From an uncultured SAR86 cluster bacterium (GTDB lineage Bacteria > Pseudomonadota > Gammaproteobacteria > Magnimaribacterales > D2472), in assembly GCA_902591665.1 (NCBI GenBank), contig CACJBO010000001.1, forward strand, positions 15,112-79,111: a DNA stretch of 64,000 nt, in the 5' to 3' direction. Positions 22,703 through 28,183 of this stretch are shown here, one piece after another. The notes beneath the pieces were generated by a model. That model was not told the origin of the DNA and did not search any database. It saw only the letters and a list, made by a program, of their open reading frames with translations. The position numbers were made by a program, and so were the translations under genes. The stretch's first letter is position 1. The number at the start of each line of letters is the position of its first letter.

Positions 22703-23608
22703 ATGAGTTATGAAGAAGGATATGCAGAAAATAATGGTATAAAAATATTTTATAGAGATTATGGTCCAAAGAATGCTATTCCAATTCTCATGGTCCATGG
22801 GCTTGGAGCACAATTAGTTCATTGGCCTGAACATCTAATAGATTTTCTGATAGAAAATAATTACAGGCCAATTACTTTTGATAATAGAGATTCTGGGCTA
22901 TCAACAAGATTTAAAAAGAAACCATCAATTGTTTTAGGTTATCTAAGATATTTTTTTAGATTGCCAATAAGATCTGAATATACTTTAAATGATATGGCAA
23001 GAGACGGTATAAATGTTTTAGATCATTTGAACATCAATCAAGCACATGTAATAGGTACTTCTATGGGAGGCATGATTAGCCAAATTATTTGTTCTAAATA
23101 TCCTAAACGTGTGAAAACTTTTACCCTGATAGCTTCAACAGCATCTGTACCAGGACCTTTGAATGGAGCTACAAAAGAGGTGCGAGATATGATGGTTAGT
23201 CGATCAAAGACCACAAACCCAACTATGGATGAGGTATATCAAAGAGAACTGAAATGGGTTGGACTAATTGGAATGGAGGGCAAAGAGTTAGATACTCCTA
23301 AATTTAAACAAGATACTATAAATAATTTTAATAGAATTAAAAATGTTAAAGATGGATTTGGTTATGCTAGACAGCTTACAGCAATACTGTCTTCAAAAAA
23401 TAGAATTAAAAAAGTTAAATCAATTAAAGCAAAAACACTTCTAATTCACGGAGAGAAAGATCCAGTGTTGAATGTTAAAAACTCTTATTCAATGAATAAG
23501 CTCATTCCAGATAGCGAGTTAATTGTTATCCCAAACATGCGCCATTTAATTGAAGAAGAAATTCTTGATCAATTTAAAGAAAAACTAAAAATTCACCTTA
23601 AGACTTAA
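22703..23608 (+). CDS. Alpha/beta hydrolase (esterase-like)
   Basis: HGLG, FDNRDSG, GTSMGG nucleophile elbow, HGEKDP, terminal His; start likely the ATG at 22703. Confidence 0.88.
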   Translation: MSYEEGYAENNGIKIFYRDYGPKNAIPILMVHGLGAQLVHWPEHLIDFLIENNYRPITFDNRDSGLSTRFKKKPSIVLGYLRYFFRLPIRSEYTLNDMARDGINVLDHLNINQAHVIGTSMGGMISQIICSKYPKRVKTFTLIASTASVPGPLNGATKEVRDMMVSRSKTTNPTMDEVYQRELKWVGLIGMEGKELDTPKFKQDTINNFNRIKNVKDGFGYARQLTAILSSKNRIKKVKSIKAKTLLIHGEKDPVLNVKNSYSMNKLIPDSELIVIPNMRHLIEEEILDQFKEKLKIHLKT

Positions 23609-24695
23609 TTAAATTAAGCACATGTTTTCCTATGGAAAGACAACTTGTTACACCTGGACTTTCAACTCCTTGAATATTTATAAGTCCATCAACCCCATGA
23701 TCCCTGAAACTCTTTATAGAAAAATCCTTCATGGTTTCATTAAAACTTTGTAATTTAGGTCTTATACCAACATAATCAGGATGAAGTTTTGCAGAGTCTA
23801 TCTGGGGCCAATATTGTTTTATAGATTCAATAAATGTACTTTTTAAACTCTCATCAAAACTAAAATCAATTTCATCAACCCAGGTTATATCTGGTCCAAA
23901 TCTTATCTGACCAGATAAATCAAAACCCACATGCAGGCCTGAAGAAAACTCATTTGCAAGTGGGTATACCAAAGTGGTGAATGGGTGATTTCCATTGTAT
24001 TTAAAATAATGGCCTTTTGCATATTTTATAGAAGAGAAATGTCCTTCATCTAAGACATCAATTTTTTGTGAGATCATATCTGAATATAAGCCTGAAGCAT
24101 TAACGAGATAGCGAGTATCTATTTCATAGCTACTGCCATCGTTGCATATGATTTTAAAACCATGTTCAATCTTTTCAGCTGCAATGAAGTTTGTGTTGAA
24201 TGAAATTAAACCGCCGTTATGCTGAATATCACCCTCCAATGCGCTAATAAGCTCAGGCACATCAATTATTCCTGTGTTAGGAGAAAAAATCGCTTCTTCT
24301 ATTTTTAAATCTGGATAGATCTCTTTCATTTTTCTATTAGAAAAAAGATCAACCTCAACTAAATTTTTAATTCCTTGATTATAAATTTTATGCAATTTTT
24401 CTATGTCATTTTTATGTGATGCGATTATATATTTGCCAATTTTTTTATGATTGATTCTTTTGAGATTGGCATACTCATAAAGTAGCTTATTGCCTGAAAC
24501 ACAAAATTTAGTTTTAAATGAATTTTCTGGGTAATAAATTCCAGCATGAATAACTCCAGAATTTCTTGAGGAGATACCCTCGCCTGCTCTTGATTCTTGT
24601 TCTAGAACAACAACAGAATATCCTTGTTCGCTGCAAAATTTTGCAATTGATAAACCAACTACGCCAGCGCCTATTATGGTTACATCAAAAAACAT
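23598..24695 (-). CDS. FAD-dependent oxidoreductase, L-2-hydroxyglutarate oxidase (LhgO) family
   Basis: IIGAGVVG, SSRNSGVIHAGIYY, KGHYF, GIRPKL, GVESPGVTS. Confidence 0.85.
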   Translation of the reverse strand: MFFDVTIIGAGVVGLSIAKFCSEQGYSVVVLEQESRAGEGISSRNSGVIHAGIYYPENSFKTKFCVSGNKLLYEYANLKRINHKKIGKYIIASHKNDIEKLHKIYNQGIKNLVEVDLFSNRKMKEIYPDLKIEEAIFSPNTGIIDVPELISALEGDIQHNGGLISFNTNFIAAEKIEHGFKIICNDGSSYEIDTRYLVNASGLYSDMISQKIDVLDEGHFSSIKYAKGHYFKYNGNHPFTTLVYPLANEFSSGLHVGFDLSGQIRFGPDITWVDEIDFSFDESLKSTFIESIKQYWPQIDSAKLHPDYVGIRPKLQSFNETMKDFSIKSFRDHGVDGLINIQGVESPGVTSCLSIGKHVLNLIKS

Positions 24696-24705
24696 ATCTA
24701 GATCA

Positions 24706-24777
24706 CTAGATCAAAGGAATCAAAGGTATGTTGCAGGAAGATATAAAAAATAGACTAAATAGTATTAATAACTTCAT
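24706..24777 (-). CDS. 23-aa micro-lipoprotein (not in ORF track)
   Basis: MKLLILFSLFFISSCNIPLIPLI: basic N-terminus, hydrophobic core, lipobox ISSC; ends 10 nt before the LhgO-like start. Confidence 0.6.
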   Translation of the reverse strand: MKLLILFSLFFISSCNIPLIPLI

Positions 24778-24833
24778 AGTTTGATTCTGCCACAATACCA
24801 GCATAGATATAAATATATTTTTTGTTTTATAAA

Positions 24834-24860
24834 TAAAAAGAGCCCTTAAAGGGCTCTTAA
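24834..24860 (-). terminator. Rho-independent terminator after the GcvT-like gene
   Basis: AAGAGCCCT...AGGGCTCTT inverted repeat with a T-run on the minus strand. Confidence 0.8.
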
Positions 24861-24877
24861 TATTTAATAGCTAGAAA

Positions 24878-26182
24878 CTATTCGGCAAAGTCTAACCCTT
24901 TAGCGGCTTCAACTTCTCGCTTGTTAGGATTCACAGACTCCCTGAATGGCACATCTACAATTTCTGCATCAACTGAGACTCCTGGAGTTTCTGAATATTC
25001 ATCAGGAAGTTTAACTTTGTATTTAGTTCCTACTTCCGAAGCCTCCCATGGCACCCATGCAAGAGCAATATTGGTCTCTAATTCAGGCGACCACCAAGGA
25101 GATGTTACATAACCTACTTCTTTATCCTCAGTATCTGTAACCAACCAAAAATCAGGAGCATAGTTTGTAATCTCTTTTCCTCCAAGAGTAATACCAACCA
25201 TCTTCATTTTAAATGGTGCATTTCCTTCATCAATTATTGCTCTTTGTCTTTCAAGTTCCTCTTTACCAATATAATCAGATTTTTTATTACGAGGCACTTG
25301 ATAGCTCAGGTTAACTTGAAATGGTGAGGTCTCATGATCGAGATCTTGTCCCCAAGATAGAATACCAGCAGCAATTCTGCGATGATGAGCAGGAGCAATA
25401 ACCATTAAACCAAACTCCTCACCTGCTTCAAGCACTGCATTCCACATTTTTTCAGCATTTGCATGAGCATCACGAACATAGATCTCATAACCTTTTTCAC
25501 CAGTGAAGCCAGTTTGACTTATAACACAGTCAGCTCCACCAACTTTACATTCCATGAGTCCATAGTAAGGAATTTCTCTAAGCTCTTCCCCTGCAAGTTT
25601 TGCCATCAAGTCTTCAGATAATGGGCCTTGAATTTGAACAGGACATACATCTATTTCATCAATCTCAACATCATATTTTTTAGTAACATTTACACCTTGT
25701 AACCAAAGTAAGAGATCGCTATCTGATATTGAGAACCAAAATTCATCCTCTGATAGTCTCAATAAAACCGGGTCATTAAGAACCCCGCCTTTTTCATTAC
25801 ATAAGATGGCATATTTACCATGCATTGGTTCAATCTTTGTAGCATCACGAGTTATCACATAATCCGTAAAAGCCTCGGCATCTGGACCTTTAACTCTTAT
25901 CTGTCTTTCAACAGCAACGTTCCACATTGTTACTCTATTCACAAGGGCTTCATACTCAACCATAGCTCCGCCATCTTCTGGCTTTACATAACCTCTAGGG
26001 TGATAGATGCGATTATAAACTGTAGCTCTCCAGCAACCAGCTTCATGAGATAGATGCCAGAAAGGCGACTTTCTTACTCGTGTGGAAATTAAAAGCTCTG
26101 TCTTAGTTGGCCCACTTTGTCTAAGATTTATTGGAACCACTCTATCGCTTTGATCAACACTTGGATGATTAGGATTTGTCAT
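24878..26182 (-). CDS. GcvT-family THF-dependent aminomethyltransferase/demethylase (DmdA-like)
   Basis: WNVAVERQIRVKGPDA, NDPVLLRL, QIQGP, SQTGFTGEKGYEIY, RIAAGILSWGQD, VTSPWWSP. Confidence 0.85.
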   Translation of the reverse strand: MTNPNHPSVDQSDRVVPINLRQSGPTKTELLISTRVRKSPFWHLSHEAGCWRATVYNRIYHPRGYVKPEDGGAMVEYEALVNRVTMWNVAVERQIRVKGPDAEAFTDYVITRDATKIEPMHGKYAILCNEKGGVLNDPVLLRLSEDEFWFSISDSDLLLWLQGVNVTKKYDVEIDEIDVCPVQIQGPLSEDLMAKLAGEELREIPYYGLMECKVGGADCVISQTGFTGEKGYEIYVRDAHANAEKMWNAVLEAGEEFGLMVIAPAHHRRIAAGILSWGQDLDHETSPFQVNLSYQVPRNKKSDYIGKEELERQRAIIDEGNAPFKMKMVGITLGGKEITNYAPDFWLVTDTEDKEVGYVTSPWWSPELETNIALAWVPWEASEVGTKYKVKLPDEYSETPGVSVDAEIVDVPFRESVNPNKREVEAAKGLDFAE

Positions 26183-26357: not shown

Positions 26358-26825
26358 ATGCATAAAAAATATCTTAATTTTGTAATTTTTTCACTGGCAT
26401 TATTAATGTTCCAGCATAAATCTATTGCTGATACGGACACTAAGACAATGCTATTAACTCATAAAACACCAACATGCGGTTGTTGTAAAGAATGGGTTAA
26501 ACATGCAAAAGAAAAAGGCTTTAATGTTCATACACAAGATCATCAAAACCTTGAAGGTATTAAAAAAATGTATGCTATCAAGCCAGAATATAGATCTTGT
26601 CATACAACCGTATCTACAAATGGTTTTATTTTCGAGGGTCATATACCAGTAAAGTACATAACCCAATTTTTATCAGAAGATCATCCTAATGCCATAGGTT
26701 TATCAGTACCAGGAATGCCCTTAGGGTCACCTGGCATGGAGTTTGATGATAGGTTTACACCTTATGACGTGCTTATCTTATATAAAGATGGATCGAGTAA
26801 AGTATTCGCAGAAGTAAGGAATTAA
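26358..26825 (+). CDS. DUF411 (CopG-like) periplasmic metal-binding protein
   Basis: Signal peptide; PTCGCC..W, SCHT, EGHIP, VPGMPLGSPGME. Confidence 0.9.
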   Translation: MHKKYLNFVIFSLALLMFQHKSIADTDTKTMLLTHKTPTCGCCKEWVKHAKEKGFNVHTQDHQNLEGIKKMYAIKPEYRSCHTTVSTNGFIFEGHIPVKYITQFLSEDHPNAIGLSVPGMPLGSPGMEFDDRFTPYDVLILYKDGSSKVFAEVRN

Positions 26826-26833
26826 TAAATTGC

Positions 26834-28183
26834 TTATGAATTAAGCCTTTTGTTTATTTCTTCTTTTAGAAGCCACATTCTATCCTGGCCCCACACATAG
26901 AATGGATTATCATCATTTGCATCTGTTATTTTGAAACTAGGCACACCCCAACAATTACCTGAGTACATGTCTTTTAAATTATCATCTAAAACTTTTTTCC
27001 AATCATTGCTTCCTAGTTTTTTAGAGATAATATTCCAATCAAGACCAAGCTTTTCAACTGTAGACTTTAGATAGTCATCCTCTCCAATATTAATCCCATC
27101 GTAAAATGAGGCTTGAAGTAATTCATTAATGTACTCAAAACCTTTTCCAGCCTCATTAATAATTGGGAATATAGAATAAGCTTTCCTAGCTGGCTTTCCT
27201 AATGGAGAATAAATCTTACCAATTGGATTATTCTTTTTTAGCCCCTCTCTTGCAGCATCAGAAATAATGTATTTAGCTTTAAAATTTGGAATAGTCATTT
27301 TGCGCATTAGCATTGGTAAAACGGGTTTGGTTATTAGATTAATTGGGTACCCATCTTTTATTTCTTGCACACCTGTTACGCTGACAAAAGTATATGGGCT
27401 ATTTAAAGATGGGTAATAGTAAAGATTAAATTTATATTCACTTTCAAGTTTATCTGGTGCTTTTAAATTTGGAACACAAACAGACTCATTCATTGAATCT
27501 TTTCTTAAACCTAATTCATCTAATCTCTCTTCGAGATGATTAATTCTATCAACTCCCCAGTAAAGCTCTTTTCCATAAAAAAAAGCTGATCCAAAATAGT
27601 AATCTTTATCGTCTCTTATTGTATTCCCTTGCTCTAATTTTTTTAAAACTTCATCAGGAGTTGCCTTATGTTTTGTTGAAAGCTCTTCTAAAGTTTTTTG
27701 ATCATGAGACCATAATGCTTTACTAACTTTTTTGGCAAGGGAGGTAAAATCCGACTCATCTGCTGCAGTCAAAATAGAATTAGCTAAATTAACCAAATTT
27801 TTTTCTGGATAGGTCTGTGATGAAAATGCCACACCATAATAATCTGCAATACGGTTTACATCTCTTAAACAATAATCACCATATAAAGTTGGCTCATGAA
27901 CAGTTTCGGGATTTTCTTCACCAACAAGAACAGGCTTTAACAAAACATCAAATGTAGAAGCAATTTTTTCAACGTACTCAACTGTCAGGGCTGAATAAGG
28001 ATCATCAACTTTATGAAAATAAACAACGGTATGTGACTCTTGTGATTCTTGCCTCTCAGCCTCAAATGCAACTCGTGCCTTTTTAATGAGATCATAGCTT
28101 GCATAGGTATTCATAACTTTATTTCTTACCTTTGCAAAAATTGTTCGGCGAGACATAAAATTCATAAAAGCTTTTGAAATCAT
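26834..28183 (-). CDS. Tandem DsbA-like/HCCA isomerase (GST-kappa-like) two-domain protein
   Basis: Two thioredoxin-fold units: DDPYS...YWGVDR and NSPYT...WGVPSF...WGQDR. Confidence 0.8.
   Translation of the reverse strand: MISKAFMNFMSRRTIFAKVRNKVMNTYASYDLIKKARVAFEAERQESQESHTVVYFHKVDDPYSALTVEYVEKIASTFDVLLKPVLVGEENPETVHEPTLYGDYCLRDVNRIADYYGVAFSSQTYPEKNLVNLANSILTAADESDFTSLAKKVSKALWSHDQKTLEELSTKHKATPDEVLKKLEQGNTIRDDKDYYFGSAFFYGKELYWGVDRINHLEERLDELGLRKDSMNESVCVPNLKAPDKLESEYKFNLYYYPSLNSPYTFVSVTGVQEIKDGYPINLITKPVLPMLMRKMTIPNFKAKYIISDAAREGLKKNNPIGKIYSPLGKPARKAYSIFPIINEAGKGFEYINELLQASFYDGINIGEDDYLKSTVEKLGLDWNIISKKLGSNDWKKVLDDNLKDMYSGNCWGVPSFKITDANDDNPFYVWGQDRMWLLKEEINKRLNS

Follow-up and report, generated by a model that had tools for sequence, protein, structure and literature searches.

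The window, a stretch of 64,000 nucleotides from an uncultured SAR86 cluster bacterium (NCBI GenBank assembly GCA_902591665.1, contig CACJBO010000001.1, positions 15,112 to 79,111 of the forward strand), contains a tiny ORF of 23 codons in total on its minus strand, with the ATG at 24777-24775 and the TAG at 24708-24706. The encoded peptide starts with methionine (M) and lysine (K; codon AAG), continues with a hydrophobic core and the lipobox I-S-S-C, whose cysteine (C) codon lies at 24735-24733, and ends with N-I-P-L-I-P-L-I directly before the stop. A preliminary description of this DNA had reported the same ORF with these elements, giving no strand, and had placed it between a terminator and an LhgO-like gene; both the ORF and its position were confirmed. 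On the minus strand the order is the stop of a GcvT-like gene, a hairpin, an AT-rich spacer, the TGGCAGAAT box, 6 bases, the ATG, 22 codons, the TAG, 10 bases and the ATG of the LhgO-like gene (Table 1). The hairpin at 24858-24838 separates the GcvT-like gene from the small gene. Between the small-gene TAG and the LhgO-like ATG at 24695, 10 nt further on, there is no terminator. The LhgO-like gene (lhgO) is probably co-transcribed with the small gene here, and is not its constant partner.

Table 1. Features of the small gene and its flanks in the window
Feature	Position in the window	Strand	Remarks
GcvT-like gene, upstream	24878-26182	-	GCV_T match
Intrinsic-terminator-like hairpin, ends the GcvT-like gene	24838..24858	-	9 pairs, 5 of them G-C, then a T run
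TGGCAGAAT, extended -10-like box, candidate promoter	24784..24792	-	ends 6 nt before the ATG; invariant in genus-g1 copies
Predicted signal peptide, codons 1-14: M-K, hydrophobic core, I-S-S before C	24736..24777	-	fits a PS51257-like rule
Predicted mature part, 9 codons: C and N-I-P-L-I-P-L-I	24709..24735	-	conserved in relatives
Stop TAG right after the last I	24706..24708	-	position fixed in relatives
DAO-family FAD oxidoreductase gene (LhgO-like)	23598..24695	-	DAO, 170 bits

Two details of the preliminary description needed revision. The TG-N-TATTGT element that it placed just upstream exists (TG-g-TATTGT, 24800-24792), but the element conserved in relatives is TGGCAGAAT at 24792-24784. 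Likewise, the internal I-P-L repeat is present in this peptide but is lineage-specific, most relatives reading IPLVPF. An alternative in-frame ATG at 24804 occurs only in the closest relatives, and reading from there would cross the conserved TGGCAGAAT box; the start was therefore taken as 24777. Just upstream of the GcvT-like gene the window further contains genes for a DUF411 protein with a signal peptide (26358-26825, plus strand) and a 449-aa protein that carries a DSBA-like domain at its C-terminus (26834-28183, minus strand). In one related genome (G009) the DSBA-like gene immediately precedes the peptide gene.

Lipoprotein signals follow the rule of PROSITE PS51257, with K or arginine (R), an uncharged hydrophobic core and [LIVMF..]-x-[AGS]-C, the C being at about position 15-35. 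Using this PS51257-like rule, we counted ORFs with an M start, a length of 18-45 aa, a lipobox and a tail of at most 15 residues. The 1.18-Mb genome contained 25 such tiny lipobox ORFs, compared with 13-24 (mean 18.2) in ten block-shuffled genomes. Since the shuffled genomes give nearly as many, a lone ORF of this kind is not beyond chance. ORFs with K and hydrophobic residues arise cheaply in DNA of 33% GC, AT-rich codons favouring just these residues. Both points speak for the possibility that there is no gene at this place, either because the ORF arose by chance in AT-rich DNA or because a conserved DNA or RNA element happens to be open. What exceeds chance is the conservation of the ORF and not the bare ORF.

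Conservation of the small gene

One comparison left the peptide aside and took the LhgO-like protein as the query in 61 related genomes (E up to 0.001). It had a match in 48 of them, and 30 loci were examined. Ten loci have an LhgO identity of 72-100%, and in nine of them the small ORF was found directly upstream of lhgO; these nine syntenic copies keep the C, the residues following it and the stop despite many base differences. At LhgO loci with at most 67% identity no such ORF was seen (L016 was viewed in part and L017 left out). At the tenth high-identity locus (L007 in genome G017) the small gene is absent, while the TGGCAGAAT box is kept and is followed after 6 nt by an ATG. By its sequence, this locus looks like a recent gene loss that retained the promoter. 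The remaining ATG of L007 begins an ORF of 10 codons, which overlaps with the start of lhgO.

Searches with a degenerate DNA pattern for C-N-I-P-[LF]-[IV]-P-[LF]-I, which did not include a stop (pattern 1; control, the reversed pattern), revealed a single match in the window's own genome. Among 139 genomes of the family, pattern 1 matched at 27 places in 26 genomes, versus one match of the control. In 26 of the 27 cases the match is an ORF of 23-30 codons that begins with M-K or M-K-K, has a hydrophobic core and a lipobox, and stops right after the isoleucine (I); the remaining match (L039) falls within a gene of 342 aa on the opposite strand and was discarded. A looser pattern that included the stop (pattern 2) detected 37 places in 35 of the same 139 genomes, with no control match. 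One of these places (G117:C1), which ends in TGG instead of a stop, was also dropped. The 36 true copies are distributed over five genera, namely g1 (13 genomes, including this one), g9 (9 of 32 genomes), g8 (3 of 9), g5 (9 of 41) and g10 (1 of 3). The genus g5 displayed a variant with an 8-residue mature part, C-I-P-F-[VI]-P-I-I.

A profile of 26 sequences gave a bimodal result when searched against 266 genomes of the order. It showed 27 matches at 32-49 bits, all of them in family f1; the remaining matches reached 20 bits at most and covered only the signal-peptide part, with the exception of a variant without asparagine (N) at 17.6 bits. A search for related loci in genome contigs returned five loci, two of which were true and identical to the copies in G033 and G106, and three unrelated. 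Of the 26 family genomes with a completeness of 90% or more, 7 have the small gene. The small gene is dispensable, because its presence is patchy and because it has been lost at L007 in a close relative. One genome of g1 (G011) has two copies of the peptide gene, L054 on contig C1 and L058 on contig C4, each located behind its own 434-aa GcvT-like paralogue; lhgO follows only one of the two.

At E up to 0.001, an hmmsearch of the profile against 1.84 billion representative proteins yielded eight. Seven of these end exactly with the I of the motif, and no longer protein that begins its mature part with the motif was among the eight. The exception, P0005 (58 aa), reads past the usual stop, with Tyr-Thr-Tyr where related genomes have stop-Ile-stop and with otherwise the same downstream residues; read-through, an error in sequencing or an artefact of gene calling may account for it. 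A search for homologous proteins with the 49-aa P0007 detected only the query itself. The preliminary description had stated that standard gene callers would miss such ORFs. The ORF was indeed skipped, but the eight representative clusters imply that gene callers do sometimes call its relatives, and public records may already list such ORFs as hypothetical proteins.

Scanning metagenomes with the valine (V) variant plus stop revealed 12 loci, 11 of which contain the same kind of ORF, and eight of these 11 are on contigs of 58-71% GC. The twelfth locus (L131), which is without a signal peptide, was dropped. With the exception of L134, the precursors of the eight high-GC loci have 24-32 residues and start from ATG, GTG or TTG. 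The motif was also found in one of 400 sampled other genomes of the class (no control matches); this genome, G625, belongs to another gammaproteobacterial family and its mature part reads C-N-V-P-F-I-P-G-I. It was found in none of 400 genomes drawn evenly from the phylum (again no control matches), and neither pattern had a copy in 2.9 million viral contigs. Homologues that keep both the frame and the C, for which the preliminary description had proposed a pattern search, are hence present in low-GC and in high-GC lineages. Judged by these sequences, the family is genuine and spans very different genomes (31% to 71% GC), yet it is sporadic.

Sequence features and selection

The pooled sets comprise 48 ORFs; these encode 42 different peptides, with 13 different mature sequences. 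Their common design consists of a K/R start, a variable hydrophobic core, a lipobox, the near-invariant C-(N)-[IV]-P-x-[VI]-P-x-I and an immediate stop. An alignment of 26 sequences showed that C, N, I, P, P and I of the mature part are invariant. All 26 true pattern-1 ORFs stop at the same position, though the stop was not part of the pattern. The residue after the C is N, or I in g5, and none of the 13 distinct mature variants has a charged residue. The region before the C varies freely in sequence and in length (14-23 residues). The PS51257-like lipoprotein rule fits the ORF of the window and 39 of the 42 distinct peptides; the other three deviate, one of them having I at position -1. By sequence, the small gene belongs to a family of 23-32-codon genes with the architecture of lipoprotein precursors. 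The hidden gene for a lipoprotein-type precursor with a nine-residue mature part that had been proposed for this locus is supported, in so far as 48 ORFs keep the frame, the C, the lipobox and the stop.

The selection test was done with eight species taken from LhgO synteny alone. For the nine mature codons it gave a pS of 0.676 and a pN of 0.048 (ratio 0.07), and for the twelve codons before the C a pS of 0.575 and a pN of 0.258 (ratio 0.45). The synonymous-biased conservation suggested beforehand is thus seen in the mature codons (pN/pS 0.07 at pS 0.68). In the signal-peptide part of the 26 sequences, variability is far lower at second codon positions than at the first and third ones. This low variability is expected for the NTN codons of hydrophobic residues, and the region lies outside the search pattern. 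A fast-varying signal, an invariant C, a frozen tail and a fixed stop are, at the level of sequence, what one would expect if a lipoprotein signal is cleaved off and the mature peptide has a function.

These results bear on the possibility that there is no gene. Homologues in DNA of 58-71% GC encode the same peptide with different codons, third positions are nearly saturated and first and second positions fixed, and the control patterns matched at 0-1 places versus 27-37. A comparison with Rfam gave nothing of note, no match being better than E 0.089. A chance ORF or an open DNA or RNA element is hardly credible against these findings, and the pattern of substitutions indicates that the small ORF is almost certainly a translated gene.

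A real gene could also encode an unprocessed hydrophobic membrane peptide, that is, a single helix of 23-32 residues with an unlipidated C, which would serve a membrane complex as a subunit or modulator. Among the small proteins known from bacteria, many are membrane subunits of this single-helix kind. The whole 23-aa chain is hydrophobic, with an uncharged mature part, and its lipidation is itself a prediction. However, positions -3 to -1 before the invariant C keep lipobox character in 39 of the 42 distinct peptides, the freely varying region before the C (pN/pS 0.45) differs sharply from the near-invariant part after it (pN/pS 0.07), and Lgt, LspA and Lnt are all present. We therefore consider an unprocessed peptide unlikely, whereas a cleaved and lipidated peptide is a likely product given the lipobox and the tail behind it.

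Gene neighbours and expression signals

The neighbourhood of the small gene differs between lineages. Most g1 genomes have the GcvT-like gene upstream and, downstream, lhgO or in some cases directly a convergent hydrolase gene; in three other g1 genomes an unrelated 274-aa lipoprotein gene is located downstream. The g9 copies lie between SelO upstream and a convergent 2-hydroxyacid dehydrogenase downstream. An HxlR-type regulator is the upstream neighbour in g8 and a tRNA the downstream neighbour in g10. On four to five high-GC contigs a DUF3422 gene precedes the small gene and an ArsC-family gene follows it. The small gene is without an lhgO neighbour in g9, g8, g10, g5 and several g1 genomes, and lhgO without the small gene also occurs, at lower LhgO identity. 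Comparison of the neighbourhoods across lineages revealed no common neighbour or partner gene.

At four of the high-GC loci (L127, L130, L132 and L133) the peptide stop overlaps the in-frame ATG of a 114-aa ArsC-family gene (TGATG), and the order DUF3422, peptide gene, ArsC-like gene and convergent YitT gene recurs in these four. L125 has an ArsC-like gene too, without overlap, its ATG being about 14 nt past the peptide stop.

Such close spacing, with a stop that overlaps the next start on several high-GC contigs and lies only 10 nt from the lhgO ATG in the window with no terminator between, could be taken as the mark of a cis-acting leader ORF. The ORF would then act on the LhgO-like gene by attenuation, stalling or translational coupling, and the peptide itself would be functionless. 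A constant linkage to lhgO was, however, not found: most peptide-gene loci are without lhgO, and lhgO is also found without the peptide. In g9, g8, g10, g5 and part of g1 the neighbours include convergent genes (PdxB-like dehydrogenase, hydrolase) and one tRNA. Amino-acid-level selection on the last nine codons holds in all contexts, and the RNA fold of the region is no better than that of shuffled sequences (z -0.36). Because the neighbours differ between lineages, a leader peptide for lhgO is very improbable. The link seen in the window is local, and lhgO most probably simply uses the promoter of the small gene.

Of 32 distinct low-GC upstream sequences, 26 have a TGn-nAnAAT box whose end lies 5-7 nt (6 nt by eye) ahead of the ATG. 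It has the form TGGCAGAAT in g1, a TGnnA[AT]AAT-like form in g9 and the form TGAGAGAAT in g5. As background, the same arrangement precedes 99 of the 46,479 ATGs of the genome (0.2%). Among 975 long ORFs of the genome, 17 have the box 5-7 nt before a candidate ATG, and leaderless mRNAs may therefore be made from a small number of its genes. A purine-rich Shine-Dalgarno-like motif was seen 7-10 nt before the start in seven of the eight high-GC loci (all but L134). A -10 hexamer that ends 6 nt before an ATG places the transcription start at about the A of this codon. The position of the -10-like box therefore suggests a leaderless mRNA for the low-GC copies.

Assembled metatranscriptome contigs from two studies cover the gene, one with 763 nt over 24687-25400 and one with 151 nt over 24729-24851. 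Their variants keep the frame, with a synonymous change in a proline (P) codon at 24724 and a 3-nt insertion behind 24757. This coverage weakly supports transcription, as assembled contigs carry no information on level, strand or ends and may contain DNA. Some runs left parts of the stretch uncovered, to which no meaning is attached.

Lipoprotein processing, known families and proposed action

The genome encodes the processing enzymes Lgt (220 bits), LspA (115.7 bits) and Lnt (233.5 bits), all above cut-offs. The enzymes which the preliminary description had invoked for this precursor, Lgt and LspA, are thus available, lipidation and cleavage of the peptide being predicted. One LolC/E-like protein was detected just under the cut-off (359 bits). 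The Pfam models of LolA and LolB had no match in this 92%-complete genome. The LolA model matched none of 19 genomes of g1 (including this one) and none of four genomes of family f4, and matched all eight genomes of f2 and f3, which are sister families. A recognisable LolA may be lacking in this lineage.

Searches of Pfam and NCBIfam with 13 variants (six low-GC, seven other) at E up to 10 revealed only weak matches to the signal peptide. Those to LPAM_1 (PF08139) reached 17.6 bits, below the cut-off of 20 bits. The precursors resemble the generic lipoprotein signal of LPAM_1 and PS51257 in their K/R n-region, hydrophobic core and [LIV]-[SAT]-[SAG]-C; in contrast to the family, these entries describe a signal only and not a conserved mature nonapeptide. 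The family was previously uncurated, no Pfam or NCBIfam model covering the mature part. A profile search of PDB sequences had no match, and in the ESM Atlas the best score, 0.84, was to unnamed clusters and provided no lead. No paper containing the strings of the mature motif was found, and the accessible parts of the literature on small, smallest or tiny lipoproteins contained nothing relevant.

Entericidins (EcnA/EcnB), with which the preliminary description had compared the peptide in size, are very small chromosomal lipoproteins. The mature part of the small gene is less than half as long as theirs, and in contrast to them no paired second gene was seen in the neighbourhoods. The small gene was rejected as an entericidin, no entericidin model in Pfam or NCBIfam matching any of the 13 variants at E up to 10.

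A toxic or membrane-active peptide, similar to type I toxins or entericidins and serving stress lysis or competition, might be expected from a tiny, hydrophobic product with a lipobox and from a gene that is patchy, dispensable and duplicated in one genome. We consider such a role improbable. No paired antidote ORF or antisense-RNA-like feature was noticed and the neighbourhoods consist of housekeeping genes; neither entericidin nor toxin families were matched in Pfam or NCBIfam at E up to 10, and the 2.9 million viral contigs were without copies. Furthermore, a mature part that is near-identical from 31% to 71% GC points to a conserved interaction surface.

The nearest known system is LptM (YifL; PF13627, NF047847), a small lipoprotein belonging to the LPS translocon. 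According to the accessible part of its published description, the family motif of LptM consists of the lipobox and a short mature N-terminal stretch, and the conserved N-terminus contacts LptD and thus an outer-membrane machine (PMC10567701). LptM and the small-gene product are thus alike, within that description, in being small lipoproteins or predicted lipoproteins whose conserved part is the lipobox with a short stretch after the C, a part that is functional in LptM. The LptM-like gene of the genome is also tiny (35-41 codons), but it reads C-G-V-K-G-P-L where the small-gene family has C-N-[IV]-P-x-[VI]-P-x-I, and whereas the tail of LptM is variable, the small-gene family always stops after 8-9 residues. 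Identity of the small gene with LptM was rejected: NF047847 gave at most 14 bits (cut-off 27.7) and covered the signal part only, and PF13627 remained unmatched at E up to 10. Identity by location was rejected as well, since it is a different ORF, the LptM-like one, that sits before lysA, and the small gene is not adjacent to lysA/dapF. This LptM-like gene (L138:1468-1593, minus strand; G000:C1 about 254403-254468) lies outside the window, directly before lysA. Its peptide ends with ...S-S-C-G-V-K-G-P-L-V-N-S-Y-V-V-T-K-I-Q and gave 22.6 bits (cut-off 27.7 bits); by sequence it looks like a minimal LptM.

From these data we propose the following route for the small-gene product. In the low-GC lineage, transcription would start from the -10 box 6 nt before the ATG and yield a leaderless mRNA; in this genome the lhgO-like gene, 10 nt further downstream, probably shares the promoter. 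A chain of 23 residues finishes translation while it is still within the ribosome tunnel, and membrane insertion must therefore follow translation. The short hydrophobic precursor would insert post-translationally, its uncharged nine-residue tail probably being able to pass the membrane largely unaided. Lgt would then place a diacylglycerol on the C, LspA would cleave before it and Lnt would N-acylate it. The predicted outcome is a triacylated nonapeptide, C-N-I-P-L-I-P-L-I, in a periplasm-facing leaflet of a membrane.

The invariant P-x-x-P core together with the fixed free C-terminus could make this peptide a lipid-anchored ligand for a protein of the envelope; the preliminary description had thought of a plug or regulator of an outer-membrane protein, or of a signal. 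A partner is proposed because the mature sequence is almost identical in genomes from 31% to 71% GC, and a role for the free C-terminus, along with the two prolines, because the chain always ends at the same I. As no conserved neighbour or partner gene was found, the ligand idea is drawn from analogy, its action being modelled on LptM, whose conserved lipidated N-terminus works on LptD. By this analogy, a dedicated ligand of an envelope protein is a possible but tentative assignment. It is equally speculative that these peptides, as the shortest ribosomally encoded lipoproteins described, dock into one conserved envelope protein, in a hydrophobic groove or a domain that reads the C-terminus, as lipid-anchored subunit or regulator. 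Each would be an N-acyl-diacylglyceryl-Cys peptide of 8-9 residues, and annotation would have overlooked the family on account of its small size. The account as a whole, with an independent 23-codon protein-coding gene, a type-II signal and a mature part of 8-9 residues, transcribed and processed as above and acting as a ligand, is the one that we favour with moderate confidence.

A lipoprotein is usually pictured as a folded protein held by a lipid anchor. In this family the anchor would bear only eight further residues, and these are under very strong selection in distant lineages. The small gene is a clean example of a conserved gene that was missed by standard gene callers and by curated family libraries, and in abundant marine bacteria with small genomes each retained gene is informative. 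If our reading is true, the family would lower the size limit known for functional lipoproteins and represent a ribosomal route to lipopeptides in Gram-negative bacteria, and its mature peptide would provide an easily synthesised, defined probe for the envelope partner.
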